In this document: in pieces, positions 2,767 to 52,575 of the stretch | How positions within the stretch are numbered: position 1 is the stretch's first letter | Layout of the letters: the number at the start of each line of letters is the position of its first letter | Assembly: GCA_964291285.2 (NCBI GenBank) | Contig: OZ219789.1 | Coordinates: forward strand, 224,001-288,000 | From: Alphaproteobacteria bacterium | Lineage (GTDB): Bacteria > Pseudomonadota > Alphaproteobacteria > Bin95 | DNA length: 64,000 nucleotides | Direction of reading: 5' to 3' | Translations under genes and position numbers: made by a program | Notes under the pieces: model-generated | The model's database searches: none | Told to the model about the DNA's origin: nothing | What the model saw: the letters and a program-made list of their open reading frames with translations, nothing else

Positions 2767-7035
<4,269 letters not shown>

Positions 7036-11388: not shown

Positions 11389-11451
11389 ATCCGCAGACTA
11401 CAAGCGATTCGGCGAGGCCCCGCCATCCTCAACTGCCGGATTTAGGGTGAA

Positions 11452-13018: not shown

Positions 13019-13369
13019 TTACCCGGTGTCATTGTCCGCGAGCGTGGACGGGGCGGTGAGAACGCCATCGGCAGGCCTCTCCGCATCGGGGTCCGGCACG
13101 ATCGTCGAGATGAACTCCCGGATTTCCCGGACTTCGGCTTGGCGTCCGTCGGCGATGAGGCCTCGGGCGATGGCCTGGGCGGCGAACAGCGAGGCCCGGG
13201 CCACCTTGATTTCGGCCCCTGTGCCGGGCCATTCGCGCCGGTCGAGAGCCTGGATGGCGAGCTCGACGACGAGCCGATTGGGCGAAACCTGCCGCTCCCT
13301 GGCCGCCGTTTCGATACGCTTCCATTGGTCTGCGGTGACCCGGATGTTCTTCTGGAGTGATGATGCCAT
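13019..13369 (-). CDS. Ribbon-helix-helix protein, putative relaxosome accessory factor (TrwA/TraY-like)
   Basis: QKNIRV strand followed by two helices; transcribed away from the oriT-like site. Confidence 0.6.
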   Translation of the reverse strand: MASSLQKNIRVTADQWKRIETAARERQVSPNRLVVELAIQALDRREWPGTGAEIKVARASLFAAQAIARGLIADGRQAEVREIREFISTIVPDPDAERPADGVLTAPSTLADNDTG

Positions 13370-13497
13370 GCGGTTTCACCCGTTCTTGCGTGTGGATTCG
13401 CTAGAGTTCCGGTTCGGGTTCTGTCAGATCCCCGGGGCCGCGCGGCCCCCGGTCGTCCGGCGTGGCGGGGCGAAGTCGCGGGCGAACGCGGCCTTCG

Positions 13498-13522
13498 GAC
13501 AGCTACCGGACCGGTAGCTGTC
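13498..13522. promoter_or_regulatory. Perfect palindrome GACAGCTACCGG-A-CCGGTAGCTGTC
   Basis: 12-bp arms, 1-nt spacer, between the RHH gene and the oriT-like site. Confidence 0.5.
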
Positions 13523-13781
13523 ATGGTGCAGCGTATGCGAGGGCGATACCAGACTGGTAGTTTCGCAGGAGCAAGTCCATATCCAGCGGGGGCGGAAGGG
13601 GCCTCCATGTCCGACGGAATGCGGAAGAGCGGCGCCCAACCTCCTGATATCGCGCATGTGTTTGCAGCAAACACGGGAGCTACCAATCCGGTGCGACCTT
13701 TCCCGGCGTGACAGGAGCGGACAGACCTGCGCCCGCCCGCGGCATGGGCGGCCACAGCGGACACGGGCAGCCATGGCAACG

Positions 13782-13808
13782 CCTGCATCAAGGATGCGTC
13801 GGGTGTGA
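13782..13808 (+). other. Putative MOBF-type oriT/nic site, copy 1 (predicted nick 13806/13807)
   Basis: GCATC-AAG-GATGC hairpin followed by GTCGGGTGT^G; resembles F (TGCGTGGGGTGT^G) and the R388 hairpin-nic layout; identical copy at 35792. Confidence 0.65.
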
Positions 13809-14585
13809 CGGTAAAACTCCGAACGGAGTCGAGATCGGGCGAGGTTGCCCTGCACACCACCATCTCCTGAAACGCCAGCGTCACAAGGGACGGGAGCCGT
13901 CGCGGCGATTGAGCGAGACGACCGGTCCGCGATCTTCGAGCGCGTTCCGCGTTGTCGTCCGGTCGCAGAGGTAACAGAACGCGGCGCGGCGTGCAAACGG
14001 CGGAGGGCAGTCTTCACACATGGCGCACCGGAGCCGGCGGCGTTACCTCGGCGGCACGGGCGCCGCCGCACATGTTCCGCGGAGCCGAAGGACGCCGCGC
14101 ACATGTTACCGCGATGCAAGCGTGCTCGACGAAAGCGGGGCTGTTCAGGGTGATCGCGTGCTGCTCACACATTACCGCAGACGCAGACGGGGATGGCGCA
14201 CCCGTTACCGCGGCTTCAGCCGCGCGGGTGCGGTGACGGTTGCGATAGCCGTTGCGATCGGAGGCGCCGACGGCGGCGCCTGCACGACTGCGGGCAGCGG
14301 TGCGAAGCACGGTGTCGTGCCGGTCCGGCAGCAGCGCCGGCAGTGGGCGGGTCAGCAGTGCCTGCGGCACTGCGCCGGGCCCGGCGCAGCCCGCGATGCA
14401 CCCATGCGAAGCATGGTGCAGCGGCGCGTGACGCGGCAGCCCCGGATCGCAGTCCGGGGCAGGCTCCTCACGAACGCGGCGCGAAGCGCGCGCGAGGCGT
14501 AGCTGTCGCGCGACGGGTGTGCGCATACGGAGACGGACCGCGCCGCCGCCGGAGCGGAGACGACGCGGCCCGTGGGTGCTGCGTG

Positions 14586-15512
14586 TCAGGCGGCGCAGCG
14601 CATGACCGGGATGCCGAACTGCTTCGCCTTGTCGACGAGGTTGTCGGTGATGCCGGAGCCGGGGAAGGCGATGACGCCCTTGGGCAGGAGGTTGAGCAGT
14701 TCGTCGTTGCGGCGGAAGGGTGCGGCGCGTCCGTGGCGGTCCCAGTCGGGCTTGCAGACGACCTGGTGGACGCCGTTGCGCTCTGCCCAGCGCGCCGCGA
14801 TCTTCTCGACGCCGGGACCGCCGCCATGCACGAGCACGAGGTCGGCATACCTGGCGCGGACCTTGTCGAGGCGCTCGATGACTGCCGCCGGGTTTGCGAT
14901 GTCCTTTCCGCCGGCGATGGCGACCAGTGTGCCCTGGGGCAGGTGAGCCTGTGTCTTGCGGTCCTTTCGGGCGCGGACGAAGTCGCGGGCGTCGATGGCA
15001 GCGGAGGTCAGATGTCCGGTCTGGCTGGCGTGGCTGCCGCGCCGGGGCCGCCATGTGTCGCCGGTGTCTGCGCGGTAGGCTTCAGCGGCTTCGTCGCGCA
15101 AGGTCTCGAAGGCGTCGCGGCGTGCGGTGAGGCACTGTGCGCGGTCGGTCGTGAGTTCCAGTTCGAGGGACCTGATCTCGGAGCCGTCCTGGGTGCGCTG
15201 GAGGTCCTGGAGTTCGGGGATGAGCCTGTCGGCAGCGCGGTCGAGGCGCTGCGTCTGGGCGTGGAGCATGTTGACGAAGCCCCAGAGCAGGCTCTCGCGT
15301 TCGTCTGCCATCTGGTATCCGTCGGGCGCGACGCCCTGGCTGAGGATGCGGAAGGCTTCGGTGACGGCGGCGATGGCCTCGTCTTCGTCCCAGACCTCGC
15401 GGTTGTCGAACTCGTCGCGCTCCGGGGTTGCGCCGAAGAGAGCGGCGTTGTCGCAGACGATCGCGGTTGCGGACTGCGCTGCGGTTTCGGTGATGTCGGT
15501 ATGGAAGGTCAT
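14586..15512 (-). CDS. DUF2493 (SLOG-family) domain protein, copy 1
   Basis: VAIAGG, LVHGG.PGVE, AAPFRRN, IAFPGSGIT motifs. Confidence 0.8.
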   Translation of the reverse strand: MTFHTDITETAAQSATAIVCDNAALFGATPERDEFDNREVWDEDEAIAAVTEAFRILSQGVAPDGYQMADERESLLWGFVNMLHAQTQRLDRAADRLIPELQDLQRTQDGSEIRSLELELTTDRAQCLTARRDAFETLRDEAAEAYRADTGDTWRPRRGSHASQTGHLTSAAIDARDFVRARKDRKTQAHLPQGTLVAIAGGKDIANPAAVIERLDKVRARYADLVLVHGGGPGVEKIAARWAERNGVHQVVCKPDWDRHGRAAPFRRNDELLNLLPKGVIAFPGSGITDNLVDKAKQFGIPVMRCAA

Positions 15513-38142: not shown

Positions 38143-39180
38143 GGACTCCCTCCACTCCTCGGGTCGGCTTGCCCGACCCTCCGCTCTCCTCTTCCTCCCC
38201 CGGACCGGGAGCCCGCTCCGGCCTGCGGGCCGGAGGCGCAGGAGGGGGTGCGGAACAGCGGCGCGAAGCGGGCGCGGAGCGTTGCCGGGCCGAGGGCGAC
38301 GAGGTCGTCGTTGAAATCGTTGCCGGCGGGCAGGATGACGGTGGCGGCGACGCCCGCCCGCGCGCAGCGCCGGGCGAGGCGTTCGGCCGCGAGCGCGCCG
38401 TGCTTGTCATTGTCCTGCGCGATGACCAGCCGCGCGAGACCGGGCGGCGGCGCGAACGCGCCGAGGCTCCCGGCCGAGAGCGCGGCGGCGGCCGTGATCT
38501 CGGGCACGGCGGTGACCAGCGAGAGGACCGTCTCGATGCCCTCGCCGACGACGAGCGGCGCGTGGCCGGCAGGCGCGCCGAAGCGCACCGCGAGGCCGTG
38601 GATTCGGCCGAGCGCCTTGCGCGGCGCGGCGATGTCCGCCTTGGCGGGTGCGCGGGGATCGAGCCAGGTGCGCTGCACGCCGAGGATGGCGCCGTCGCCG
38701 CCGGTGACGGCGGCGACCAGCGCCGGGAAGCGGCGCACTGCCGGGCCTTCGCGGTAGCGAAGCTCCGGGTGATAGCGCAGCGCCGCGAAGCGGCAGCGCG
38801 CGAGCCCGCGCGCGTGGAGATAACGCTCGGCGTGGGTGTCGGCGATGGCGCGGCAGCGCCGCCACAGGCGGCGGGCAGTCTCTGTCGCGTCCCAGGGCGC
38901 GTCCGGGGCTCCCGGATACCCGGAACAGGTCCGGGCACTGTCCGGGGCAGGCTTCAGGGCGAGGAAAGCGCGCGCCTCGTCGAGCGCCGCGCGCAGCGTC
39001 GGCGCGCCCGAGCGGTAGCGGACCAGATCGAGCAGGTCGCCGTGCGTGCCCCGGGCCGCATCGGTCCACTTGCCCGGCGTGCCGGGTCCGGAGAGGCGGA
39101 CGAAGAGCGAGCGTCCGCGGGCGCCGTCGAGGTCGCCGCAGATCCAGTAGCGCCCCTGCCGGCGGCCATGGGGCAGATAG
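38139..39180 (-). pseudogene. TOPRIM-domain primase-like protein, 5'-truncated by IS1634
   Basis: GKWTD..HGDLLDL, GVQRTWL, VVGEGIET, IAQDND, DFND; no start codon before the IS. Confidence 0.8.
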
Positions 39181-39331
39181 CCCGACTTCCGCAACTCGGC
39201 TTGAGAATCGACTGATTTGACGGTTTTCCGGCGCGAGAAGTGTCGGATTTCGGTGCAGTACCTCTCGGGACCGGCTTGTAGTGCCGACCTACCCCCTTGA
39301 TCGGGCTGGCGAAGATCCGGACGCTGCGCTG

Positions 39332-41080
39332 ATGTTCGTGCGCTGCAAGAGACGCTTCAAGGACGGCAAGGAGCACCGCTACTGGAGCGTTGTGGAGAAC
39401 GTCCGGGTCCACGGCGGTCGGGTTGTTCAGCGTCAGGTGCTCTATCTCGGGGAGATCAACGACAGCCAGCGAGCGGCGTGGTGCCGCTCGATCGAGGTGG
39501 TGGAGGGCAAGTCGCGATCACGGCAGATGGCGCTGTTTCCCGAGGACCGGGAGGCGCCGGCGCTGACTTGCGAAGTGGTGAAGATCGACCTCTCGCAGGT
39601 GGCGCTTCACGACCCGCGCCAGTGGGGGGCGTGCTGGCTGGCGCTGTCCTTGTGGGACCGCCTGGACCTGGACCGCTTCTGGGAAGAGCGGCTGCCGGCG
39701 AGCCGGCAAGGCACGCGGTGGCTGGACATCCTGAAGATCCAGGTCTGCTACCGGCTGATCGACCCGGGCAGCGAGTGGCGCCTTCACCGTCACTGGTATG
39801 AGCACAGCGCGCTTCGCGATCTTCTGGGTGGCGAGCGGGCGATCGCCGACGACACACTCTATCGCTGTCTCGACAAGCTGCTGGCGCACAAGCAGGGCTT
39901 CTTCTCGTTTCTGCGCGACCGCTGGGCGACGCTGTTCGAGGCGCGCTTCGACGTGCTGCTCTACGACCTGACCTCGACCTACTTCGAGAGCGATCCGCCG
40001 TTCGATGACAAGCGCCGCTTCGGCTACAGCCGGGACAAGCGGCCCGACTGCGTGCAGGTGGTGATCGCCCTGATCGTTACGCCGCAGGGCTTTCCGCTGG
40101 CCTATGAGGTGATGCCGGGCAACACCTCCGACGACACCACGCTGGCGGCGTTCCTCAAGAAGATCGAGGATCAGTATGGCCGCTCCGAGCGGGTGTGGAT
40201 CATGGACCGCGGCATCCCCACCGAGGAGACGCTGGCCGCGATGCGCGAGGGCGAGGCGCCGGTGCGCTACCTGGTGGGCACGCCCAAGGGCCGGCTGACG
40301 CGGCTCGAGAAGGTGTTCCTGGGCCTGCCCTGGCAGGAGGTGCGCCAGTCCGTGACTGTCAAGCTTCTGGTCGAGGATGGCGAGCTCTACGTCCTGGTGC
40401 GCAGCGAGGGGCGGCAGGTGAAGGAACGCGGCATGCGCCGGCGCCGGCTGAAGAGGCTGTGGCGTCGATTGGCCGAGTTGCAAGGGCAGTCGAACAGCCG
40501 GGATCAGTTGTTGCTCAAGCTCGGCGCCGCCAGGAAGGAGGCCGGCCGGGCCTGGAGCCTGGTCGACATCACCGTGCCCGGGACCGACAGCGAACTCGCC
40601 GCCAACGGCTTCTCATTCCGCCTGCAGCGCGACCGGCTGCGCCAGGTCCGCCGCCGCGAGGGCCGTTACCTGCTGCGATCCAACATGGTCGCCGAAGACC
40701 CCGCCACGCTGTGGCATCTGTACATGCAGCTCGTCGAGATCGAGCAGGCGTTCAAGGAACTCAAGCACGACCTCGCGATCCGCCCCATCTTCCATCAGCG
40801 CCAAGAGCGCATCGAGGCGCATATCTTCGTCTCGTTCATCGCCTACTGCCTGCTGGTGACCCTGAAGAACCTCGCCCGGCCGCGCGCCCCGGGCCTCACC
40901 CCACGCGCCATCCTTGAGGCCTTCGCCACCATCCAGATGGTGGACGTCCATCTGCCAACCACCGACGGCCGGCACCTCGTCCTGCCGCGCCACACCCGGC
41001 CGAACAAGGAGCACGAGCTACTGCTGCAACAGCTCGGCATGACCTGGCCGCAGCAACCCGCACCCCGGATCTCCGCCTGA
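39332..41080 (+). CDS. IS1634-family transposase
   Basis: KDGKEHRYWSVVE, LYDLTSTYFE, GYSRDKRPD, IMDRGI, IEQAFKELK. Confidence 0.93.
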   Translation: MFVRCKRRFKDGKEHRYWSVVENVRVHGGRVVQRQVLYLGEINDSQRAAWCRSIEVVEGKSRSRQMALFPEDREAPALTCEVVKIDLSQVALHDPRQWGACWLALSLWDRLDLDRFWEERLPASRQGTRWLDILKIQVCYRLIDPGSEWRLHRHWYEHSALRDLLGGERAIADDTLYRCLDKLLAHKQGFFSFLRDRWATLFEARFDVLLYDLTSTYFESDPPFDDKRRFGYSRDKRPDCVQVVIALIVTPQGFPLAYEVMPGNTSDDTTLAAFLKKIEDQYGRSERVWIMDRGIPTEETLAAMREGEAPVRYLVGTPKGRLTRLEKVFLGLPWQEVRQSVTVKLLVEDGELYVLVRSEGRQVKERGMRRRRLKRLWRRLAELQGQSNSRDQLLLKLGAARKEAGRAWSLVDITVPGTDSELAANGFSFRLQRDRLRQVRRREGRYLLRSNMVAEDPATLWHLYMQLVEIEQAFKELKHDLAIRPIFHQRQERIEAHIFVSFIAYCLLVTLKNLARPRAPGLTPRAILEAFATIQMVDVHLPTTDGRHLVLPRHTRPNKEHELLLQQLGMTWPQQPAPRISA

Positions 41081-41292
41081 CGGCACACGGCGCCGCCTCT
41101 CCGTTCGCCGCCTTGTAGTGCCGACCCTCGGGGAGACGATCAAGGCTATTCAATGAGTTATACCAACGGTCGTTGATTGGAACCTATAGCAGAGCCGCCC
41201 TCCGCAGCTCGCCTCCTGAGCCGAGGCCTCCTACTGCAAGAGGTAATCTCCGCCGAGAGAGGCTAATCGGTTCTTATCTGTGGCCGGTGGTA

Positions 41293-41366
41293 TTAGCATC
41301 CTCATGACCCCCGAGTTGCGGAAGTCGGGTTAGCATCCTCATGACCCCCGAGTTGCGGAAGTCGGG
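41293..41366. repeat. 2 x 37-bp tandem repeat of the IS right end
   Basis: TTAGCATCCTCATGACCCCCGAGTTGCGGAAGTCGGG twice. Confidence 0.93.
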
Positions 41367-41504: not shown

Positions 41505-42287
41505 CTATTGCAGCAGCTGGCGGATTCGATCTTGCCAGCTTTTGGTATGGATAATCCTGTGTCGATGTAGATTGCCCTGAAGGATTTCACCCTTTGTCAT
41601 TTGCGATAGCTGATGCCATTCGAGGTCGAAGACATAGGTGGCGTTATCGAGCATGCTGCTTTCCAGGACAGCAAGGCCCTTCGTCTTGAATATGTAGGCG
41701 ACATACGATCTGAAGCCTTGCTCGCCGATATAGACTTCGTCGGGCGAGGAGGAGGCAAGTGTCTCGTGGCGGAAGAGGACCGGGGCGGATTCGCGTGGAC
41801 TGCGGGATTCGAGAGTATCGATGACATGTTGGCGGACGCGGCTCAAAGGATGCTGGCCGGGGGGCAGGAGGGTCCAATTAACGTGGCGAATGGTGGGCGA
41901 TGGTTCGGGGTCGGGAAGCGCCGCCATTTCGTCTGGTTCAGGAGCGTTTTGGTATTGCTCGCCGATTGGGTCGGGGCTGGAAGGGCCGGTATATTCGAGC
42001 CAGGACGGGTCGATGTCCTCTTTGGTGAAGCGCTTTTTATCTAGGATGAGCGATACGAGGTGGCGGCGCTGGTCTCTGCATTCCGGTGAGGGGCAGATGG
42101 CGACGAGCCCCCAAGGATAGCGACCGTCGGCGGCCGCTTTGGTGTCATAGGCCTCGATGCGGAGCCAGCCCGGTTCGGCGTAGCATGGACTTCGGCAGAG
42201 AGAGCAGGACATGTGGCCCGACACGGTCTGCTTCCCGAGGAGGGACTCGATTTCATGCAGGCCGCGGGGACATTCCAATTTGCGCAT
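41505..42287 (-). CDS. Hypothetical protein with Cys-rich N-terminus
   Basis: 260-aa ORF co-oriented downstream of the RM gene; CSLC and CPSPEC. Confidence 0.65.
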   Translation of the reverse strand: MRKLECPRGLHEIESLLGKQTVSGHMSCSLCRSPCYAEPGWLRIEAYDTKAAADGRYPWGLVAICPSPECRDQRRHLVSLILDKKRFTKEDIDPSWLEYTGPSSPDPIGEQYQNAPEPDEMAALPDPEPSPTIRHVNWTLLPPGQHPLSRVRQHVIDTLESRSPRESAPVLFRHETLASSSPDEVYIGEQGFRSYVAYIFKTKGLAVLESSMLDNATYVFDLEWHQLSQMTKGEILQGNLHRHRIIHTKSWQDRIRQLLQ

Positions 42288-42363
42288 GTCGGAGGGGTCG
42301 ATTCGGGTGGGGGATAGAATAGTGTGCGGCTATGTGGGGAGCAATCAGGCGGCGGATTGGTTG

Positions 42364-45300
42364 CTAGGGGTCGGCGTGATCGGGAAGTATCTGGCGTACT
42401 GCGTCATCGATCTGGGCAAAGACGCCGCGTTCCTGGAGAAGATCGCGAATGCGATTGGACGTCGCAATTTGGCCAAGGCGTCCTTCTGCGGTTTCAATGA
42501 AGCGGCTTGCGATGGTTTCAGCGCGGGCGCAGAGGGCCGCGAGTTCCAGGTGAAGGGGGTCGTCTGGGTCGTAGCGGGGGATGGGAATGGCGCGCCAGGG
42601 GTTGTTGGTGAAGTGACGGCCACTGGTTCGGGAACCGACATAGGCGCGGTGTAGGGATGGAGCGTTGAGGAGTGCCACGAGAAAAGCGGCCTCGCCGGCG
42701 CTGGCTGCTGTGAAATAGTGGAGAGTGTGCTGGAGGATGATAGTGCCGGGAGGAATCCTGGCGGCTCGCATAATGTCTCCGGAAGTGGGGTGGAGGACCA
42801 ATGTCCGGTGTACGCGCTGGGGAACAAGCTGAACGGAGAGCCCGCCATTATAGTCGAGGCGTTCGATCAGGGTCTTCGGAGTGCTCCGGCCTTGTCCGCG
42901 GTGTTCCTGGTAGATGTGGTCGAGGTCCTGCCAGAAATCTGAATGGCGTTCGGGGACCGTCTCAAGAGTTCCGCGGGCGGTTGTTGGGATAATGGCCTTG
43001 GGAACCGCAGGATTGACCACGAAGGCGAAGAGTTCGTTGGACGTGAGGAGGTTACGAATCCATCGACGGCGGACGGTGCCCCTGTTGGTCGGCACCGTGT
43101 GCCAGGGTTTCTGTCTCGATGGCGCTGTTGTGACGGTTCGATAGCCTGCTCCGGCGCCTGGGAGGACGTCATGAATTACGCTCAGGACTTTTGGGGTGAT
43201 GGTGGCGCCCTGTCGAAAAAGGGGCGCGTTATTGTCATCAAGGAAAGAGGATGGGCGTTTGGGGAGAGGTCTTGGAGCCGGGCGGAAGGTGAGGAATTGA
43301 AGGGCCTCGGCGAACCCCATGTCGGCGGTGGGTTTGCTTTGCGGCGCTGTGACGACAATGCGAGGCGAGTTTCTCGGGACTAGGTTTCTGGACCGTCTTG
43401 TCTCGAACAGGACGCAGCAACGGCGGGCGTCGCCGGAACCGAATGGCTGGACGGCCTCAAGGTCGAATGATTGCGCGAGGAGCGATTGATGCCATTGGCG
43501 AAAGCGGGTCCAGCCGCCGCCTGTGAGGGCGGATTTCTTCACGATCCATGCGGCGGGATTACGCGCAGGCTCTGCAAGGTACAGTTCGCGGGCACGTTTC
43601 ACGAAGAGCTGGGCGATATCGAAATGCGGAGCGTCGCGGCCGCCCGTCCAGAGTTCCATGTCGCGGTCGGCGAAGTCTTCAAGGGCGCGCTTGCGATTCT
43701 CGACCTGAATTTCTGCCATGGAAACCCATGGGGGATTAGCGACGATACGGTTGACCTTCTGCTCTCTGAGACGGAGAGGTCCGGTCGTGTTGGAGATGTA
43801 CCAGGTCCAGACGGAGTTGCCTTCGCGTTCGATGATGGTGGTGAACGAGGCATGGCAGGCTTCCATGGCGGCGCGGTCCGGGAGGGGGACGCTCTGCGCA
43901 ATGTCGTCCGGAAGGGGTAGATGGTTCGCGGCGGCGTTGACAAGGCGCCGGAGGTTGTCCGCGAAGGCTGGCTGCTCAATGAAAGATCGAGGAAGCAGGA
44001 TTTCCCCGCCTCGTGGGGTGGATATGCGAATTTCGCCGTTTCGGGGGCGGAAGAGCGAGGACTCGTCGTCGGAGTTCACGAGCAGGGAGTCGCCTTCGTA
44101 GATCCGGATCGAGGATTTGCCGTCCGGCGGTTCGGCGGGAAGGGCCCGGAGCAGGGTGGCGCGGGAGATCTCGGCAGCGACAGGATGAACATCGATGCCG
44201 TTGACCAGGCGAGCGACGACCGCGGCCTTGCGGGGCGCGCTGTGGTCCGCGAGGAGAGGGCTGCGCAGGAGGCGTTGGGCAGCGAAATAAAGGAAGGTGC
44301 CGGAGCCGCAGGCGGGATCGAGAACGCCGACGCCGTCGAGTTCAGCGCGGCTGTTTTCGGCAGCTAATGCGGATCGGACGGCGGAGCGGCACCAGGCATC
44401 GTCGAGGACCTGTTCGACGAGAAGGGCGGCCAGCCAGTCTGGGGTATAGTACTCGCCGAATGCTTTGCGATCTTGCTCGCCGACGAAGCGTTCGTAGAGT
44501 GGTCGAAGAACGTCGCCGCGTTGGCGCCGCCATTCATATTCGTGGACCTGGTTCAGAAGATTCTGCGCCCAACGGCGTCCTCGGCCGGTGGCGAGTGTCC
44601 ATGACACGAATCCGTCGCCCAGGATGATGGCCGGGTCAGGGTCGGTAGCTGGCGTCGCGAGTGTATGGATGACGCCTCTGGCAAGGGCGACCAGGAAAGA
44701 GTGGGTGACGAAGAGGCGATGGCGCGCGGCGTCGCCTTCGGGTTCCATGCTGGAGGTTCGCAGCATTTCCAGCCAGAGCTGGGTCTTCGTGTCGGTCTCG
44801 GCGAGCTGGCGGCCTTGAAGACTCTCATAGATGTCTCGAAGGTTGTCGTGGGCCGGCTGAAAGATCGGGAGGGGGTTGGGCGGTATCCAAGGTCTGCCGA
44901 TCGGTTCGACGTCGAGAAGCGGGAGGATGCGGTGAAGGAGGTCGTTAGCGTCGCGAGGCCGGAACGAGTCGAGAGTGTGCTGGGCGATGGCGCCGCGGGC
45001 ATGGTCGTAACGCCATGCATGCCATATGCGGCCATCGGTGAGGATTCCGGTCCAGTGGCGGTCGGGTTGATCATCGAGCGGTAGGCGGTTCTGTTCGTCT
45101 TCCAGTTCGCTCAGGAGGTATCGCTCGAGTTGTTGGAACGGGGTCTCGTTGTTGTAGGTAGGCTGAGGTCGATGTGGGTCGTCGGCGAGGCCATCGGATT
45201 TGGTCTCGATGAATAGGCGACGGCGTGGAAGGTACAAGTCGGCTGGTCCCGCTGGGGTCCGATAGGTGATCCGGTTGTCGATATCAAAGGAGTCGAGGAG

Positions 45301-45399
45301 TCGGCCGATGTCCTGGCGGATGTTGTCTTCAGGGCGGTTGCGGGGAGCATTCAGAAGGCGCTGGGCGCTGGCGAGTTGGCTTTGAGTGGGTGGTGGCAT
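42364..45399 (-). CDS. Type IIG-like fused nuclease/N6-adenine methyltransferase
   Basis: PADL...FIETK nuclease; GEYYTP; VLDPACGSGTF; VANPPW; C-terminal TRD-like region. Confidence 0.85.
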   Translation of the reverse strand: MPPPTQSQLASAQRLLNAPRNRPEDNIRQDIGRLLDSFDIDNRITYRTPAGPADLYLPRRRLFIETKSDGLADDPHRPQPTYNNETPFQQLERYLLSELEDEQNRLPLDDQPDRHWTGILTDGRIWHAWRYDHARGAIAQHTLDSFRPRDANDLLHRILPLLDVEPIGRPWIPPNPLPIFQPAHDNLRDIYESLQGRQLAETDTKTQLWLEMLRTSSMEPEGDAARHRLFVTHSFLVALARGVIHTLATPATDPDPAIILGDGFVSWTLATGRGRRWAQNLLNQVHEYEWRRQRGDVLRPLYERFVGEQDRKAFGEYYTPDWLAALLVEQVLDDAWCRSAVRSALAAENSRAELDGVGVLDPACGSGTFLYFAAQRLLRSPLLADHSAPRKAAVVARLVNGIDVHPVAAEISRATLLRALPAEPPDGKSSIRIYEGDSLLVNSDDESSLFRPRNGEIRISTPRGGEILLPRSFIEQPAFADNLRRLVNAAANHLPLPDDIAQSVPLPDRAAMEACHASFTTIIEREGNSVWTWYISNTTGPLRLREQKVNRIVANPPWVSMAEIQVENRKRALEDFADRDMELWTGGRDAPHFDIAQLFVKRARELYLAEPARNPAAWIVKKSALTGGGWTRFRQWHQSLLAQSFDLEAVQPFGSGDARRCCVLFETRRSRNLVPRNSPRIVVTAPQSKPTADMGFAEALQFLTFRPAPRPLPKRPSSFLDDNNAPLFRQGATITPKVLSVIHDVLPGAGAGYRTVTTAPSRQKPWHTVPTNRGTVRRRWIRNLLTSNELFAFVVNPAVPKAIIPTTARGTLETVPERHSDFWQDLDHIYQEHRGQGRSTPKTLIERLDYNGGLSVQLVPQRVHRTLVLHPTSGDIMRAARIPPGTIILQHTLHYFTAASAGEAAFLVALLNAPSLHRAYVGSRTSGRHFTNNPWRAIPIPRYDPDDPLHLELAALCARAETIASRFIETAEGRLGQIATSNRIRDLLQERGVFAQIDDAVRQILPDHADP

Positions 45400-45512
45400 C
45401 GGCTGAATGTCCTGATTTGCACTGTCAACGTATAGCGGGGGGTTGGGCGGGCAGCAAAGTCGGCTTCAGGACTTGGGCGGCCGGAATTTTGAGAAAGAAG
45501 AGGTCGACATTA

Positions 45513-46388
45513 GGTTCTGTGGACGGATTTGATCAAGATGAAGGCGGCGGCGAGGGCAACGAAAGAACTGAAGTTTGTGGCGGTCTTTTCGCAGCGCAGG
45601 GAGATGCATTTGAAGCGTTTCAGCTTGCCGACGGCCTGCTCGATACGGGCCTGTCCCCTGTAGAGCGCCCTTGCGAAGCGCTTTGGCCTGCTTTTGTTGT
45701 TTCTCCGGTAGGGAAAGACGGTCAGGGAGCCTCCTTTCCGGGCGAGTCGGCGGTTTCCGGCGCTGTCATAGCCCTTGTCGGCGACGATGGCGCGGGGCCG
45801 GACATCGGGGCCGATGTCCATCAGGGTCTCGAAATGCGGACTGTCGGCCGGCTCACCGCCGGTCAGGTCGAAGGCGATCAGCAGGCCGTCGAAATCGGTC
45901 TTCATCTGGATCTTGGTGCTGAAACCGCCCCGCGAGCGTCCAAGCGCCTGACCCCGCTGCCCCCTTTTGCGCCGGCCGCCGATACATGCGCGCGGGTCAC
46001 CGTCGAATCGAACATCTGAACCAGATGCGCCGTGCTGCTCAAATCCGCCAGCGTGGCGGAAAAGTCCTCGAACACCCCGGACCGGCTCAGACGGTGAAAA
46101 CGCCGCCATACCGTGTTCCAGTGTCCGAACCGCTCCGGCAGCGCCCGCCAGGTGATGTTGTGAACCGCAAAAAAAGTGCAGCGCCTCCAGAAACAGCCGG
46201 TCGTCCTTCGCCTTCGCGCCCCGTCTCGGAAGGCATAGCCGGAAAACCTCCAGCGCCACCTCCCAGTCTCCATCCGTCATCTTCGTCGACATCAACGAAA
46301 CCCCCGAAGCGCCGACGCCTCATGATTCAGACAAATCCTTGTCCGGGAATCCCTGAACACCCCCCTGAGTCAATACATCCACAGGGCC
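45513..46388 (-). mobile_element. IS5 family (IS427-like), copy A; orfA carries an extra frameshift
   Basis: IRs GG..CTGTGGA.G; TA duplication; A7 at 46169-46175 where copy B has AAAGAA. Confidence 0.88.
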
Positions 46389-48673
46389 TAGGCACCCTGC
46401 TGTTGCTCCGTACTGGCTTGCCGCGGCGCCCAATGCTTCGAAGTGCGCATGTCGATCCAGTCGCAATGTAGTTCAAGACGGATTTCATCATCACCCTCGG
46501 GGACTATGAAACGCTTCAACGGCTTGGGTATTGGAAAGTAAAGACCACCGTATACTTCTTGTAGCAAGCGATCCAACTGGATCGCACCCTCAGCCCTGAC
46601 AGTACCTGCGATGTTGGCCGCCACCACTTCGTCAAGACGTATTTCGTACTGAAAAGCCGCACTCACAGCGTCTGAAACGACATATAGAATCTTGTTTCCG
46701 GCCCACACAACTCCGCGCCCCTCGCACTCCGGCAATAAATCGCCATACGCGCTAAAGGCCGTATCGGGCAGGCGAATATAGTAGCCTGCCAAGCTTGTAG
46801 TTCCCTGATCGTCAACGATCTGTAGTATCCGCGGATATCGCTTACCCGGCTGTGGGTTTGTTTCAGCTTGCGCGCCGCCAGTACCACCGACATTCACAAC
46901 CTCCACATCCGACCGAGTAAAGACTTGCCGGCGCCCTCCCTTATGCACCACCCCAATATCGTCCTTGAGGAGGACCCAAAGTTCGGACCGCCGCTTGGCA
47001 AGCAGTTCAAGATTAAGCGCCCCATCACCGAAAAACCGTGGGCTCCATTTCTTGAGCGAAGGTCCTAGGTACTCACGACAAAATGTACCGATTAAAGAAT
47101 ATAGGATTTGTGTGAACCCTAATTCCGTCAGCTTTGCGACTTCTTGATGCCGGACATCAACAAAGATATCTATGGCTTTGCTGCCGCCACGTTCCTTGAC
47201 GAATACCGGAATATCTTCGGTGAGCTTGCCGGCTATCAGCCGAAAATCCCTGACCTCGTAGGATTTCGAAATATTCAGTTCTAGTTCGCTCAGAAATACC
47301 TTTTCGAACCGGCTCAGCTCTTGGTAGTGCTCCACGCAGTCGATTATGCCGTCAAACGGTTTGGCATCGCAGAATTGTTCCAGATAACGCCGTTCCGCGT
47401 TTTGCCGCTGACGGTCGGAGGCGAGCAGGACCACCAGATGCCCGCGCGCCTGCATGATCTGATTCAACGCTTGCTTCTGCGCGACGCCGAAATACACACG
47501 GACTCCGCCCTGTTCTGCCCTCTGCCGAATGTAACCGAGTGAACTCTCCGACCCGTCCGCCAGCCGCACCTTTACGTTTCCGAGACGCTCAACTAGTCCG
47601 TTCCTGAGAATATAGCGGAATACCCTCGTGTGTTGTGCAATCCGCTCGGGCGTTTCCAAAACGGCCTCGATCGCGGCCTTCTCCAATGTGAGTACGATAC
47701 GTCCCAGGAGGCTGGTTGTTTCCGAGTCGAGGGAATCTCGCCCCGCCGTCGGGACGAACCGGTCACAATCAAGACGCCCCGAAGCGCCGATCGTACTGCC
47801 GATCTGAGTCGCACACAGTTTGAATCCTCGTTTAAACACGTCGATCAGACCGTTCTCGAAACGCAGATGCCCGGTCAGACCGATGGGCTCACCTCCGATT
47901 CCGAGCCCTTCGATCACAACCACAAGGGCATGTCCGCGATCTTCGAACATTCGCCCGGATATGGCCAGATCACCGTTCTGCCACTCTTGCGCCCCGGCTC
48001 CGACCTCGGAAAAGTTCTCACGGTCCTCAATTTCCGACAACCGACCCTGGGACACCTTCTGCCCATTGAAGTATATTGCCGTCGGCACGAACCGCACAAA
48101 ATCTCTGAGATAGCCGCGAAGCTGTTCAACGTCTGGCGGTAAACGCAAATGACCGGTTACCATCGTTCCGCGGGGTGCGACCAAGTCAGACTTTTCCATC
48201 GTTACTGATGGTATAGTTGTCCCGGCGGCGCGAATATCTTGTTCCGACAGTCGTGTCAAAGTGCCCTGAGAGGAGGTTTCATTCTGCGATATGACTTCCA
48301 GCACGTCGCACACCCCAAAATTTGCAAAGCCTCCAATACCGAAGGTGCCGACGCAGCCCGCCGCGACGGCTTCAGGATTTCTTTTTCCACTGGCTCCCAT
48401 CGTCCAGAAATAGTTTTGAACGTCGCCGGGCGACATTCCGATTCCATTGTCACGCACGACAATCGTCTGGTTCTCGACTGTGATATCGATCTTGTAGCGG
48501 GCGTCGTTCGTCTCCGCGCCATCGCGATGTGCTTGGATACGTATCGCATCCACCGCGTTCTGCACGTTTTCGCGCACGAATGCGAGAGGCGTTTCGTATA
48601 TCTGCTTCGAAATAATCCGCAGGACGCTCTCGAAATCGATCCCTGCCGGGAATGATGTATGTCCGTCACTCAC
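46388..48673 (-). CDS. Hsp90/HtpG-like GHKL ATPase with uncharacterised C-terminus
   Basis: RENVQNAVDA, DNGIGM, GTFGIGG, RGT motifs. Confidence 0.85.
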   Translation of the reverse strand: MSDGHTSFPAGIDFESVLRIISKQIYETPLAFVRENVQNAVDAIRIQAHRDGAETNDARYKIDITVENQTIVVRDNGIGMSPGDVQNYFWTMGASGKRNPEAVAAGCVGTFGIGGFANFGVCDVLEVISQNETSSQGTLTRLSEQDIRAAGTTIPSVTMEKSDLVAPRGTMVTGHLRLPPDVEQLRGYLRDFVRFVPTAIYFNGQKVSQGRLSEIEDRENFSEVGAGAQEWQNGDLAISGRMFEDRGHALVVVIEGLGIGGEPIGLTGHLRFENGLIDVFKRGFKLCATQIGSTIGASGRLDCDRFVPTAGRDSLDSETTSLLGRIVLTLEKAAIEAVLETPERIAQHTRVFRYILRNGLVERLGNVKVRLADGSESSLGYIRQRAEQGGVRVYFGVAQKQALNQIMQARGHLVVLLASDRQRQNAERRYLEQFCDAKPFDGIIDCVEHYQELSRFEKVFLSELELNISKSYEVRDFRLIAGKLTEDIPVFVKERGGSKAIDIFVDVRHQEVAKLTELGFTQILYSLIGTFCREYLGPSLKKWSPRFFGDGALNLELLAKRRSELWVLLKDDIGVVHKGGRRQVFTRSDVEVVNVGGTGGAQAETNPQPGKRYPRILQIVDDQGTTSLAGYYIRLPDTAFSAYGDLLPECEGRGVVWAGNKILYVVSDAVSAAFQYEIRLDEVVAANIAGTVRAEGAIQLDRLLQEVYGGLYFPIPKPLKRFIVPEGDDEIRLELHCDWIDMRTSKHWAPRQASTEQQQGA

Positions 48674-48677
48674 CCTA

Positions 48678-49552
48678 GGTCCTGTGGACGGATTTGATCA
48701 AGATGAAGGCAGCGGCGAGTGCGACGAAGGAGCTGAAGTTTGTGGCGGTCTTTTCGCAGCGCAGGGCGATGCGTTTGAAGCGTTTGAGCTTGCCGACGGC
48801 CTGTTCGATGCGCGCCCGTCCTCTGTAGAGCGCGCTTGCGAAGCGCTTTGGCCTGTTTTTGATGTTCTTCCGGTAGGGAATGACGGTCAGGGCGCCTCTT
48901 TTCCGGGCGAGTTGGCGGTTTCCGGCGCTGTCATAGCCCTTGTCGGCGACGATGGCGCGGGGCCGGACATCGGGGCCGATGTCCATCAGGGTCTCGAAAT
49001 GCGGACTGTCGGCTGCCTCGCCGCCGGTCAGGTCGAAGGCGATCGGCAGGCCGTCGAAATCGGTCTTCAGGTGGATTTTGGTGCTGAAACCGCCCCGCGA
49101 GCGTCCAAGCGCCTGACCCTGCTGCCCCCTTTTGCGCCGGCCGCCGATACATGCGCGCGGGTCACGGTCGAATCGAACATCTGAACCAGGTGCGCCGTGC
49201 TGCTCAAATCCGCCAGCGTGGCGAAAAAGTCCTCGAACACCCCTGAACGGCTCAGACGGTGAAAACGCCGCCATACCGTATTCCAGTGCCCGAACCGCTC
49301 CGGCAGCGCCCGCCAGGTGATGTTGTGAACCGCAAAGAAGTGCAGCGCCTCCAGAAACAGACGGTCGTCCTTCGCCTTCGCACCCCGCCTCGGAAGGCAA
49401 AGCCGGAAAACCTCCAGCGCAACCTCCCAGTCTCCATTCGTCATCTTCGTCGACATCAACGAAACCCCCGAATCGCCGACGCCTCATGATTCAGACAAAT
49501 CCTCGCACGGGAATCCCTGAACACGCTCCTGAGTCAATACGTCCACAGGGCC
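48678..49552 (-). mobile_element. IS5 family (IS427-like), copy B; transposase ~48675-49456 with programmed frameshift
   Basis: Highly similar to copy A; TA duplication; AAAAGGGGG slippery site. Confidence 0.9.
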
Positions 49553-51333
49553 TAGCGTCTTTCCGCTGTTTCAGCTTCTAGTTGCTTCCTAAAGTCTTTG
49601 TCACCTGTCGCTTCGACGATTCTCTGACCGATTTCCGAAAAATACTCCCGTTTATCCGGAAACTGTTTCAATCCGCCAAGGACTACTTCTTTCGCCTCAT
49701 CATTGTTTCCTCTATCTGCGAGTAGAATAGATAGATTCGCTGCATCACTGAACTCCGCCAACTCCGTATTTGCGATGGATTGATACAGCTCTATAGCTTC
49801 ATCCCTTTCGCTCAACTCTTCTGAGTTCGCCAGACTCCGTGCCTTCATTCTCATAGCTAGGGTACGCATTCCCGGGTCATGCGATCCCGTATGGCGTTCT
49901 GCTTGCTCCCGTAACTGGATCCAGTCTTCTTCAGCCGCCAGCTCCGCCAGCAACATACTCGTATGCGAAAACGCCTTTGCGGGCCTCGCCGCCGCCAGCG
50001 CCCGTGCATCTCCTTCCTGTGCCTCCAGTCGATCACGAAGCTTCGCGTCTCCCTCGCAAAGTTGATGCAGTTCCGCGTCATATGCCGCCACCAAGTCGCC
50101 ATATCGAGCGAATATCTCCGCGAGCGGTACATGCTTATAGAGCACACGCAATACGTTTCGAAAACTCAGAAATGCTTCCGTCTTCTGCTTCAGATCGATG
50201 TCGGGCAATCCTTGCAAAACAGCAAATGAGGCAAAGGAATACCCGTTTTCAACCGGGATTACGACGTCTGCCTTCTGCTCAAGTATAAGAGGAGACAAGT
50301 AGTATGAATGACTTGAGGTGCAAGAATCATAGGTAAGCATTGCCTGAGCCAATTCGCCCACATTACAGATGTCCGTGGGTATGACTTCGATCCGGTATTC
50401 TCTTACTGACTCGCTCGAAAATAAACCGGATGATGGTTTGTATTGAAATACTTCGACCTGGCGTGCCGCCCGCAAAAGATCCAACGTCACGAATGAGTAG
50501 CTGTTGTGCGACTGCCGGGTCTCGAAAGAGGCGCCTGCAGCAAGTGTCAAACAACCCATTCCCTGTACACCTGTTACCCGTGCTTCGGGCTCATGCAGGT
50601 GCCCGCAATGCAAAAAGTGGCAAGTTTCTTCAATCCGATTCATCGCAGTTCTACGGTCAAAATCTTGCAACAAATGCAAGGGGTGATGTGTCATCGCTAT
50701 CACAATATGCACCGGGTCATTGCCTTGCTGCGCAAGATTGCAACCGCCAATCACCTGCCTTTCACCAACAAGCAGCTTACCCTGATCGTCAGGCCCGCCG
50801 TGAGCGAGCCACGCGGAATCCAACCCAATAACCGCGAACCTGACATCCTCGATCGTGAGCCACGACACATAACCCAGACCGTCATCCGTCGGTATACGCT
50901 CCTGTTTCGAAAAATAGTCCTGCTGGAAACGCCTGTAATTCTCTTGGCGCTGAAGCAGAGTTGCTAGATCCTCGCCCCCTGCTAGGATCGCATCCACGCT
51001 GCTTGGATCGCGCAGAGTGGCGCGAGCGCCGCTGAAGCAAAGGCGCTGTCGGTCACGATCAATGTCATGATTGCCGGGAATGCAATATACCCGTTCCTTC
51101 TCGACGCGCGATGCGGAGCACAGCTCATCGAAGAATGTAGAGGCCAACGCATATTCCTCAGACTTTCCAGAAAATGCGATGTCACCCGTCAGCAAAATAA
51201 AGTCCGCTGTCGTCCCTCGGGCACGTTGGTCCTTGATCCGCTCGCACATCGCCGTCAGTACAACGTCCTGAGACCACTCAGCGCTTTCGCTCAGGTGAAT
51301 GTCCGAAATGTGTAGCCAACTGATGGGACGCAC
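49552..51333 (-). CDS. Calcineurin-like metallophosphoesterase with helical/TPR-like C-terminus
   Basis: SDIH, TGD, PGNHD, THH, CGHLH motifs; GTG start with GGAAGAGG RBS. Confidence 0.87.
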   Translation of the reverse strand: MRPISWLHISDIHLSESAEWSQDVVLTAMCERIKDQRARGTTADFILLTGDIAFSGKSEEYALASTFFDELCSASRVEKERVYCIPGNHDIDRDRQRLCFSGARATLRDPSSVDAILAGGEDLATLLQRQENYRRFQQDYFSKQERIPTDDGLGYVSWLTIEDVRFAVIGLDSAWLAHGGPDDQGKLLVGERQVIGGCNLAQQGNDPVHIVIAMTHHPLHLLQDFDRRTAMNRIEETCHFLHCGHLHEPEARVTGVQGMGCLTLAAGASFETRQSHNSYSFVTLDLLRAARQVEVFQYKPSSGLFSSESVREYRIEVIPTDICNVGELAQAMLTYDSCTSSHSYYLSPLILEQKADVVIPVENGYSFASFAVLQGLPDIDLKQKTEAFLSFRNVLRVLYKHVPLAEIFARYGDLVAAYDAELHQLCEGDAKLRDRLEAQEGDARALAAARPAKAFSHTSMLLAELAAEEDWIQLREQAERHTGSHDPGMRTLAMRMKARSLANSEELSERDEAIELYQSIANTELAEFSDAANLSILLADRGNNDEAKEVVLGGLKQFPDKREYFSEIGQRIVEATGDKDFRKQLEAETAERR

Positions 51334-51698
51334 CTCAGCTGGCCTCTTCCCAAAGCAACCTTGCGTCCCAGCAACCCCCAATGGCTCCAAGCAAGTCTAA
51401 GTGCAGCGACGCACGCGACTCTACGGTCCTCAACGGTTCATCAACGATAAACAGCAATGTGTCGTGCCGGGCGATGTGCTCGTCTGTTCCCAACAGCTGC
51501 CCGTCAATCATCTTGCTGCTTGTTTTGGAAGGTCGGGGGTGGCGCAGACGGTGGCCGTGCATCAAACCGTTATGACGGCTGGATTTCTTGCGAGATGCCG
51601 TTCGCGTCGAAACGGGCGGTGTCTTCGAGCGGCAATCGGCCGAATTCATCATGCGGCCCCTCCTGTCCCCGCTTGACCCCGAGCGCCGGGCACGCCGG

Positions 51699-51983
51699 TC
51701 ACGACCCGCCTGCGTTCACGGCATCCCGCAACGGCTTGCCGGCCTTGAAGGTCGGTGCGGTCGAGGCGGGGATTTCCATGCTCTCTCCGGTCCTCGGATT
51801 GCGCGCCGTACGCGCCGGGCGCGCCCTGGTTTCGAAGGTGCCAAATCCAAGGATTCGCACGTCCTCGCCATTTGCCAGGGCTTCACCGATCACCTCGAAC
51901 AGGCCTTCCACCGCATTCTTCGCAGCGGCTTTCGTCATTCCCGCCCGGTCCGCGAGGCGCTCGCCCAGCTCCGACTTGTTCAT
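51699..51983 (-). CDS. HU-family DNA-binding protein
   Basis: MNKSEL, GFGTF, ARNPRTGE, PTFKAGK.LRDAVN. Confidence 0.95.
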   Translation of the reverse strand: MNKSELGERLADRAGMTKAAAKNAVEGLFEVIGEALANGEDVRILGFGTFETRARPARTARNPRTGESMEIPASTAPTFKAGKPLRDAVNAGGS

Positions 51984-52149
51984 TCTTGCGCTCCCATGCC
52001 TGTCATCACCGGCTCGCCGTCCGCCTGAGTAGCATGTTGCGCCATTCTGCGCGATATGCCTCGCGTTGGGACCGTCGCGCGTCCGCGCATGGGCGGCACG
52101 TTTGGGAACGGCGTGTTACGGTCGCGGCGACGTGTTGGCGGGGGGAACG

Positions 52150-52575
52150 ATGCCGGACGACAAGGAACTCCGGGAGAAGCTTGCCAAGGTCGAAGCGCTG
52201 TTCCGGCGGGCCGGCAGTCCGGGAGAGCAGGCCGCCGCCGGAGCCGCGATGGACCGGCTGCGCGGCCGGCTCGGCGCCCCCGACGGGGATGGCGGGCCGG
52301 AAACCGAGCTCAGGTTCTCGCTGCCCGACGCCTGGTCGGTCCGGCTGTTCGTCGCCGTCTGCCGCAAGCACGGCCTGCGCCCCTTCCGCTATACGCGGCA
52401 ACGGCGGACGACGGTCATCGTGCGCGCCCGCGAGCGGCATTTCGACCGCGTGGTTTGGGCGGAGTTCGGCCGGCTTCACACCGAACTCCAACTCTACTTC
52501 CAGGACGTTACCGACCACCTGATTACCCGCGCCATGGGCTCGGACGGCGACGACAGCAACATCGGGCAGCGGTAG
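52150..52575 (+). CDS. Hypothetical protein (DUF2786-like N-terminal helix)
   Basis: LREKLAKVEALF..AGSPGEQAAA pattern. Confidence 0.6.
   Translation: MPDDKELREKLAKVEALFRRAGSPGEQAAAGAAMDRLRGRLGAPDGDGGPETELRFSLPDAWSVRLFVAVCRKHGLRPFRYTRQRRTTVIVRARERHFDRVVWAEFGRLHTELQLYFQDVTDHLITRAMGSDGDDSNIGQR

Follow-up and report, generated by a model that had tools for sequence, protein, structure and literature searches.

Do a metallophosphoesterase (MPE) gene and an Hsp90-like ATPase gene, which lie next to each other on a 64,000-nt stretch of the genome of an Alphaproteobacteria bacterium (contig OZ219789.1, positions 224,001 to 288,000; hereafter the window), form a defence system, and what could a chaperone-like protein have to do with a phosphoesterase? 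A sequence-only reading of the locus had proposed an undescribed defence operon, in which an ATPase sensor or chaperone is coupled to an effector degrading nucleotides or nucleic acids. Here, homologous loci, structure predictions, genomic surroundings, and the literature are brought together. The pair is probably a real defence module and a widespread, compact candidate for chaperone-based immune switching. All coordinates refer to positions within the window (Table 1); both genes of the pair, the two copies of an insertion sequence (IS) beside and between them, and a neighbouring Type IIG-like restriction–modification (RM) gene are encoded on the minus strand.

The first part of the answer comes from the conservation of the pair. 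A scan of one genome per species yielded 38 loci, spread over Alpha-, Beta-, and Gammaproteobacteria, Nitrospirota, Acidobacteriota, Planctomycetota, Gemmatimonadota, Desulfovibrio, Chloroflexota, Spirochaetia, Poribacteria, Latescibacterota, and others. Wherever a locus contains the 5' end of the ATPase gene, tblastn places an MPE homolog immediately upstream (32/32)—cut by the contig end in L008 and L017, in two pieces in L016, L018, and L033, and split by insertions in L022 and L023. These insertions are an IS5-family element (DUF4096 and DDE_Tnp_1; L022:6516-7363) and a 4.3-kb transposon that encodes AAA_22 and AAA_25 ATPases next to an HTH protein (L023:2928-7234). The other 6 of the 38 loci hold 3' ATPase fragments only and no MPE, one of them (L020) at a contig end. 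For the remaining five (L030, L035, L036, L037, and L038), the MPE is absent from the upstream DNA examined, and they look like decayed copies. Where the gene junction is readable at both ends (n = 26), the genes overlap by 4 or 8 nt in 24 cases and by 38 nt in one, and are separated by a 3-nt gap in another.

No third gene accompanies the pair: among the 677 open reading frames (ORFs) that reach 60 aa and lie no more than 2 kb away, no family is common to more than 2 of the 32 loci. The Type IIG-like gene, which the sequence-only reading had correctly recognised as a neighbour, is incidental to the pair, as neither its product nor an adjacent 260-aa ORF has a homolog in any of the 38 loci; both were rejected as members of the system on this ground. 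On this comparative evidence, the MPE and ATPase genes are a strictly conserved, self-contained operon, usually with predicted translational coupling, and the neighbourhood conservation that the earlier reading had asked for is found.

The wider family is large. At least 893 ATPase homologs were found, with 70–96% identity among those listed, and a profile search against 1.84 billion representatives returned 190 clusters at E ≤ 1e-30 and 1291 at E ≤ 1e-10. Many of the wider relatives, of ~770 aa, match only profile positions ~9–575 and therefore have a divergent C-terminus; lengths range from 615 to 813 aa, with none above 813 aa among the 150 representatives listed. A full-length fusion of MPE and ATPase was met neither among these 150 nor among 120 listed longer MPE relatives; one 436-aa metagenomic fragment reads in frame from an MPE C-terminal half into an ATPase. 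A related Hsp90-like protein, P0373 (766 aa), is extended at its N-terminus by 288 aa that match no Pfam family and do not resemble the MPE; this extension may be an alternative fused effector.

Related pairs are found at larger distance. In a genome of the same genus (G007, L041:11-3333), an MPE of 492 aa overlaps by 4 nt a 615-aa HATPase_c_3 protein, which is 37% identical to the window ATPase over the N-domain. On three conjugative Pseudomonas aeruginosa megaplasmids, an annotated metallophosphoesterase of 483 aa abuts an 'ATP-binding protein' of 772 aa with 26% identity to the window ATPase, and on one of these, pPUV-9, the pair (L042:6550-10319) adjoins an ABC-three-component system and a YaaC-family gene. 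On a Rhizobium plasmid, a related ATPase comes after a 152-aa ORF instead of an MPE. The 40 relatives searched hold no ortholog of the pair, only the distant pair of G007, and the GC content of both genes is 0.51–0.57 against 0.71–0.75 in the backbone, in agreement with the low GC noted from the sequence. Hence, the pair is accessory and horizontally moved.

Predicted structures of the two proteins and of their complex

The ATPase bears a single Pfam family, HATPase_c_3 (residues 35–147, 6.3e-10), and its best 60 PDB matches by sequence are without exception N-domains of Hsp90 (lowest E 1.2e-11). Its AlphaFold2 (AF2) model, with a mean pLDDT of 75, carries this likeness far beyond the N-domain: Foldseek matches it at E ~1e-20 over 650–700 columns to full-length Hsp90s (TRAP1, Grp94, Hsc82, Hsp90-beta, and a model of HtpG), and VIA-align gives Z 19–20.5, at sequence identities of 12–17%. 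All 50 Foldseek/VIA matches listed are Hsp90s, with no MutL or MORC chain among them. As constructs of the N-terminal and middle domains of TRAP1 cover residues 1–443 of the model and full-length Hsp90 chains reach ~550—the VIA rows span residues 2–551 only—the protein is predicted to hold N-terminal, middle, and C-terminal Hsp90 domains plus an extra domain. An ESM Atlas search with this C-terminal domain (residues 576–745) gave a best score of 0.77 and no lead.

The Hsp90-type ATP-site residues E35, N39, D42, D75, G77, G79, and G109–G115 are invariant in an alignment of 27 sequences, and so is a PTAGRDS motif with R312, which may correspond to the catalytic arginine of the Hsp90 middle domain. 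Identity amounts to 52–84% across more than 10 phyla, with a mean column identity of 71% and a mean pairwise identity of 60–81% by region. The extra C-terminal domain is conserved within the subfamily at 60%, and the most conserved stretch (81%) comprises aa 546–580 (window 46934–47038), where model confidence is ~30 and which lies outside the interface described below. Sequence and modelled fold mark the ATPase as a full-length paralog of Hsp90 whose ATP site is intact, and none of the matches listed points to the MORC/MutL type—a sharper assignment than the GHKL/Hsp90-like label given earlier, and consistent with it. An open frame of 654 aa in contig C3 of the same genome is 31% identical to the ATPase over residues 15–136 and is taken to be the ordinary htpG. 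The ESM Atlas contains HATPase_c_3 proteins of 668 aa whose cluster, with the label 91% Viruses (Uroviricota), reaches a score of 0.98 against the ATPase—a hint that relatives of this Hsp90-like protein may occur in phages.

For the MPE, the AF2 model reaches a pLDDT of 88.7, and both parts of the proposed metallophosphoesterase/TPR-like architecture are borne out, the second by a match of profile positions 504–572 to consensus TPR proteins (E 8e-13). The metal-binding motifs D11, H13, D51, N88-H89-D90, H216-H217, H245, and H247 are invariant in 24 sequences, which marks the protein as a calcineurin-like MPE with an intact catalytic site. The GTG start is backed by the 23 homologs aligned, each of which begins with MRP.xWLH at this point; a TTG further upstream, at 51390 and in frame, is an alternative. 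The C-terminal half is the most variable part of the pair, with a mean pairwise identity of 32–39%. The best structural neighbour is Bacillus subtilis YydB, modelled together with a partner protein in an integrative YydD-YydB model (9a6c_B; E 1.9e-21, 468 columns, 16% identity); the literature searched on these two proteins was of no help. Lower in the ranking stand the cyclic-nucleotide phosphodiesterase Rv0805, GpdQ, SMPDL3A/B, purple acid phosphatases, 5'-nucleotidases, and also NadN.

The relatives of the catalytic domain are informative about its possible use. A set of 137 longer MPE relatives matches only the first ~50% of the protein, at 22–37% identity. Most of the 120 listed pair the MPE with NACHT, NB-ARC, AAA_16, nSTAND_NTPase4, or KAP NTPase domains, often with additional TPR, FGE-sulfatase, WD40, or LRR regions; a minority show Metallophos families alone or no family, one relative comes after an EAD1 domain, and none of the 120 has a HATPase family. 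The Pfam copy used holds no Calcineurin-CE model. PDC-S60 of PADLOC represents the MPE–nSTAND4 form, and the window MPE matches positions 4–309 of its 1027-position profile. Judged by these relatives, the catalytic domain belongs to a clade that serves as N-terminal effector of bacterial STAND/NACHT immune proteins. Membership in PDC-S60 itself was rejected: true members match to ~position 850 and carry PF24406, and here a TPR-bearing half stands in place of the STAND NTPase.

A physical link between the two proteins is suggested by complex prediction with ATPase residues 12–742 and MPE residues 325–593. The score is 0.64 (0.64, 0.65, and 0.63 in the individual runs) against 0.00 for the best of three controls, so that the modelling suggested for this locus favours a complex. 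A score of 0.64 is reached by 116 of 157 solved complexes and by 2 of 215 mismatched pairs, counts that hold only roughly for the custom alignments employed here. At least 84% of contacts recur between the runs, and the partner pLDDT is at least 77. On the ATPase side, the predicted interface contains the invariant L461 and E465 and the nearly invariant F460, S462, E463, Y472, and E473; on the MPE side, L461, L465, W471, L474, and R480 are nearly invariant. The model supports a docking of the MPE helical segment 453–489 onto the part of the ATPase that is equivalent to the Hsp90 C-terminal domain (CTD).

Genomic surroundings and the IS5 insertion

Table 1 Features of the locus, given as positions within the 64,000-nt window
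Feature	Position	Strand	Description and basis
MPE gene	49552–51333	-	ORF, 593 aa, GTG start; Pfam Metallophos 1.6e-12
MPE catalytic domain	50392–51333	-	aa 1–314; AF2 model, Foldseek, PADLOC PDC-S60 N-terminus 2.6e-41
MPE C-terminal helical half	49555–50361	-	aa 325–593; all-helical in model, TPR-like repeats aa 504–572
Predicted MPE docking surface for ATPase	49867–49977	-	aa 453–489; complex model
IS5-family copy B	48678–49552	-	875 bp, terminal inverted repeats, 2-bp TA duplication; DDE_Tnp_1 5.3e-20; between MPE stop and ATPase start
Hsp90-paralog ATPase gene	46388–48673	-	ORF, 761 aa, GTG start
Hsp90-type N-terminal ATP-binding domain	48074–48673	-	aa 1–200; Pfam, PDB matches, motifs, VIA
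Hsp90 middle and C-terminal-domain equivalents	47024–48073	-	aa 201–550; VIA, invariant PTAGRDS motif
Predicted ATPase docking surface for MPE	47231–47302	-	aa 458–481, plus 520 and 525; complex model; in CTD-equivalent region
Extra beta-rich C-terminal domain beyond the Hsp90 fold	46448–46933	-	aa 581–742; secondary structure of model
IS5-family copy A	45513–46388	-	876 bp, TA duplication; DDE_Tnp_1 5e-16; on ATPase stop codon, between pair and Type IIG-like gene
Type IIG-like RM gene	42364–45399	-	1011 aa; PADLOC REase_MTase_IIG 9.4e-35

The company that the pair keeps elsewhere was assessed in the 32 loci with Pfam, on the 154 ORFs that reach 150 aa and lie no more than 4.5 kb away, 24 chosen ORFs being run against PADLOC as well. 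Defence or RM genes are present in 19 of the 32 loci; 7 more show only integrase, transposase, or plasmid-replication genes, and 6 neither. Two of these loci enclose the pair in a known kind of system: in L025, it lies inside a type I RM operon of the order hsdM-fic-hsdS-[pair]-DUF7002-hsdR (1533–15501), and in L032 inside an Hma-like system (1928–13479), between a SNF2-NOV_C helicase and a HmaB-type methylase (PADLOC 4.6e-112). BREX PglZ/BrxL are found in L010 and L024, where the pair comes after brxL, and PglX in L011. The other neighbours are Cas GSU0053/GSU0054 (L001), a TIR effector match (L003), CBASS HORMA and Cap17 (L005), GmrSD (L006), HKD-SNF2/DrmD (L008), Eco29kI with a methylase (L015), a DruE-like protein (L016), SIR2/PDC-S65, SacI, a C5 methylase, and ArdC (L018), an Avs4/PDC-M54A-like protein (L019), type I RM, RES, and PDC-S54 (L021), a Dsr1-like protein (L026), NOV_C and TerB (L027), a methylase-HNH protein (L028), and a methylase (L034).

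Within the window, the pair occupies a low-GC island at 41.5–51.4 kb (GC 0.51–0.61 versus 0.71–0.75 in the backbone), and this cassette occurs once in the genome. The MPE and ATPase genes are parted by IS5 copy B. Excision of this copy with one TA joins the MPE stop TAG over a single G to the GTG start of the ATPase, and the 1-nt spacing that had been deduced from the sequence exists in nature: in each of the three sequencing runs of this organism that were compared (X1–X3, all from a single study), one contig joins 48673/48675 to 49551/49553. The 877 bases skipped equal the IS (875) plus TA, and the junction contig of run X1 is otherwise identical to the window. Spread over all five contigs of the 6.1-Mb genome, 13 further full-length elements match copy B at ~100% identity, another 3 match it at 99%, and many partial ones accompany them, which points to a recent transposition burst. 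As the IS-free junction is seen in the runs and ~100% identical copies lie elsewhere in the genome, the insertion between the two genes is very recent or polymorphic. Both ORFs are intact despite it. The IS removes the translational coupling of the pair in this genome, and probably lowers or abolishes co-expression of MPE and ATPase. Copies A and B of the IS are only 92–94% identical to each other; with copy A present, the ATPase stop codon is TAG, and it would be TAA without it.

Downstream of the Type IIG-like gene follows the Cys-rich 260-aa ORF (both within 41505–45399, minus strand), which matched no Pfam or PADLOC family. An IS4-type element with a 599-aa DDE transposase and 40-nt inverted repeats lies at 39160–41366, its right end overlapped by a perfect 37-nt tandem duplication (41293–41366). 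No tRNA was found in the window as integration site, and a promoter and terminator scan of 45300–52200 gave counts not above those in shuffled sequence.

Proposed function and its rivals

We consider it moderately probable that the pair is a mobile two-gene conflict module—most likely an anti-phage one—with an Hsp90-like switch and a nucleotide-degrading MPE effector. The Hsp90-like ATPase would fill the place that a STAND NTPase takes in the related proteins, and would, as a conformational switch driven by ATP, hold back the MPE as long as no cue of an infection appears. Such a cue might be a phage protein that is captured as a client, or a ligand that is sensed either by the extra C-terminal domain or by the C-terminal half of the MPE, which is variable. 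The ATPase would then release or activate the MPE, which might degrade nucleotides or derived metabolites (dNTP/dNDP, NAD+, or cyclic nucleotides), and halt replication of the phage through abortive infection. As a proposal, this sensor/effector logic is plausible. As the ATPase is uniformly conserved and the C-terminal half of the MPE is variable, the latter may be a sensing surface or the part pressed by phage inhibitors.

A more specific form of this proposal is tentative, and we would rather doubt than assert it: an Hsp90 paralog may have been turned into an immune switch, to whose CTD equivalent a TPR phosphoesterase is bound—as in Hsp90–PP5—and from which it would be released upon client capture of a phage protein or upon a disturbance of proteostasis.

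Several points speak against a defence module of this kind. The phage records and the viral contigs searched gave no match to the pair, and PADLOC v2 holds no model of the pair as a system. The defence neighbours in 19 of 32 loci are descriptive rather than a test, as no background rate for random genes stands beside them, and some loci are not independent, with L010, L011, and L024 sharing a BREX context. Strong conservation of the ATPase next to a variable MPE C-terminal half is not the pattern of a fast-evolving sensor that consists of the ATPase only. The fold neighbours of the MPE are mixed—phosphodiesterases, nucleotidases, and, more weakly, Mre11/SbcD nucleases—and do not fix its substrate. 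Complexes of Hsp90 with TPR co-chaperones are already among the solved structures, a likeness that could raise the complex score.

Among the rival explanations, the one that survives best—although it is unlikely—also places the pair in defence, with the MPE as a direct DNA or RNA nuclease of the Mre11/SbcD kind and the Hsp90-like ATPase as a clamp or loader, like GHKL ATPases acting on DNA. Weak profile matches of the MPE to SbcD/Mre11 N-termini (E 0.0017–0.0045), a Foldseek match to Mre11 (E 4e-6), and a match to the CBASS-type effector model PDLC00736 of PADLOC, which is labelled 'Endonuclease' (8.2e-23), fit such a nuclease, as do the RM or helicase systems that often neighbour the pair. 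The stronger folds, however, are those of small-molecule phosphodiesterases and nucleotidases (Rv0805, GpdQ, SMPDL3A/B, NadN, and 5'-nucleotidase), the fold of the ATPase is, by the matches listed, that of Hsp90 rather than of MutL, MORC, or topoisomerase, and Pfam detects no DNA-binding domain. In addition, the conflict MPEs that have been characterised act on nucleotides.

Improbable is a module outside immunity, in which a chaperone-regulated protein phosphatase or stress device—an analogue of PP5–Hsp90—travels on mobile DNA and benefits the host or the element. Its parts would match, with a calcineurin-like domain, TPR repeats, and a full Hsp90 fold, as would the predicted docking at the CTD-equivalent region, and the ATPase is as highly conserved as housekeeping chaperones are. 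A housekeeping role is hard to reconcile with the patchy distribution, the missing ortholog in the 40 relatives, the low GC and IS-rich islands, and loci in which the pair is embedded in RM, Hma, or BREX genes; besides, the catalytic domain is nearest to STAND-fused effectors rather than to PPP protein phosphatases, and the 654-aa frame is taken to provide the ordinary HtpG separately.

An addiction cassette that stabilises mobile elements in a toxin–antitoxin-like fashion, with the MPE as toxin and the ATPase keeping it folded or inactive, is distinctly improbable. Tight gene coupling, the location of pairs on conjugative megaplasmids and beside integrases or transposases, and the recurrent decay or interruption—by an IS or transposon in the window, L022, and L023, and down to 3' remnants in five loci—would all suit it. 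Many defence systems share these traits, so that this rival overlaps with the defence module; and an IS tolerated between two intact ORFs is hard to fit with the strict need for an antitoxin, unless neither gene is expressed.

That the pair serves as an accessory to the neighbouring Type IIG-like gene, which shares its strand, after the manner of RM-linked, MORC-like GHKL ATPases—Iyer and colleagues are said to have linked MutL/MORC-type GHKL ATPases to RM systems in 2008—is highly improbable given the 0/38 loci with homologs of the Type IIG protein or the 260-aa ORF, the IS between the pair and that gene, and the 50 listed fold matches, all of them Hsp90s without a MutL or MORC chain.

If the proposed defence module with its Hsp90-like switch protects against phages, it would be the first experimentally tractable case of an Hsp90-type chaperone switching a prokaryotic immune effector, so far predicted by comparative genomics alone. 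In the tentative form with client capture given above, it would mean chaperone-based pathogen sensing, distinct from the logic of STAND/NLR, CBASS, and RM systems, and the near-invariance of the ATPase across phyla would mean recognition of a very general feature of infection. The family is large, spans more than 10 phyla, and awaits a system model in PADLOC v2. Handles are now available: catalytic residues in both proteins, a predicted conserved interface, a unit with no recurring third gene, and an intact IS-free allele in nature. The pair also bears on how MPE effectors such as those of DS-8 and PUA-Cal-HAD are controlled by differing upstream switches.

Comparison with known systems

Among GHKL proteins, Tiamat (TmtA), MORC, and paraMORC share with the window ATPase a GHKL ATP-binding domain in a defence context, and PADLOC v2 gives weak N-domain matches only (TmtA 1.7e-5, MzaB 5.9e-4). 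Membership in Tiamat was rejected on these weak matches and on length and architecture: the window ATPase has neither DUF3684 nor a NOV_C nuclease, keeps the Hsp90 fold throughout, and comprises 761 aa versus profiles of 1302–1655 positions. For the RM-linked MORC/paraMORC/MutL class, none of the 38 loci shows a link to a Type IIG gene, and the 50 fold matches listed include neither MutL nor MORC, which leaves room for an unlisted family. Nothing links the pair to RM-associated MORCs, and it is neither PDC-S60 nor Tiamat. A pair of the Mre11–Rad50/SbcCD type was likewise rejected, as the partner is a GHKL/Hsp90 and not an ABC/SMC ATPase and the likeness of the MPE to Mre11/SbcD is weak.

On the effector side, closer relations are found. 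According to the DefensePredictor paper, DS-8—a metallophosphatase–NACHT protein likened to SMPDL3A—protects Escherichia coli against phages and requires its catalytic residues, and DS-9 pairs a homologous metallophosphatase with a HAD phosphatase. DS-8 and PDC-S60 resemble the window pair in the homologous MPE catalytic domain, reflected in the PDC-S60 match and in the identity to MPE–STAND proteins given above, and in an N-terminal effector under an NTPase switch; the likening to DS-8 follows its published description. They differ in being single proteins with a P-loop STAND NTPase, whereas the window pair has a GHKL/Hsp90 protein from a second gene and no STAND domain in Pfam.

PUA-Cal-HAD (DS-9) likewise has a calcineurin-like conflict effector, which sits in a preassembled complex with its partner. 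Its Calcineurin-CE is reported to turn dNDP into dNMP, to cleave NAD+ in vitro, and to make dNTP pools collapse (PMC12871103), so that nucleotide depletion is the output. In contrast to the window pair, from which PUA and HAD domains are absent, its sensor is a PUA-like domain binding m6-dAMP and its partner a HAD phosphatase, and an Hsp90-like ATPase has no part in it. Together with the STAND-fused relatives, the results on DS-8, DS-9, and PUA-Cal-HAD place the MPE domain in a class with experimental support as immune effector, the STAND NTPase being replaced here by a separately encoded Hsp90 paralog.

The eukaryotic Hsp90–PP5 complex (PDB 8gae) combines, like the window pair, a complete fold of the Hsp90 type—the ATPase matches 8gae_A, among others—with a calcineurin-superfamily phosphoesterase bearing TPR repeats, and the contact predicted here falls on the equivalent of the Hsp90 CTD. 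PP5 is activated through its TPR domain. In PP5, this domain is N-terminal and the enzyme is a PPP protein phosphatase, and the window ATPase lacks a conserved MEEVD-like tail. The likeness is probably convergent.

The closest counterpart is a predicted one. The abstract of a 2023 study by Nicastro, Burroughs, Iyer, and Aravind is said to describe HSP90- and HSP70-related modules as analogues of STAND NTPases. The Tiamat preprint (2026) credits Nicastro et al. 2023 (NAR gkad879) with the prediction of Hsp90-like defence proteins of prokaryotes that form a family and have calcineurin-like effectors, and in its tree Hsp90-like antiphage proteins group with Hsp90, apart from Tiamat/SACSIN and MORC. 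The label 'undescribed' given to the locus from its sequence thus goes too far: the concept had already been predicted and MPE effectors have been validated elsewhere, while PADLOC v2 lacks a model and no experimental test of an MPE and Hsp90-like pair was found in the literature searched, where only the summary of the concept in the Tiamat preprint turned up. No mention of the pair was found in Payne 2024 on embedded defences, and none of 'Hsp90' or 'HtpG' in the DefensePredictor paper.

With these predicted systems, as the preprint describes them, the window pair shares an Hsp90-type ATPase in the position of a STAND NTPase, joined to a calcineurin-like effector, and the setting in defence islands. 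The linkage to an HD or calcineurin-like effector takes here the form of an adjacent, overlapping gene (32/32 loci) and, in the one fragment, of an in-frame fusion, and C-terminal regions vary across the wider ATPase family, with matches stopping at ~575. Unlike the fused proteins with an N-terminal effector in the preprint, the window encodes a separate MPE of 593 aa with its own TPR-bearing half, and the C-terminal domain of the ATPase is conserved within this subfamily. The pair is hence placed as a member or a variant of this predicted Hsp90-effector kind, possibly a distinct, unfused, and TPR-bearing one.

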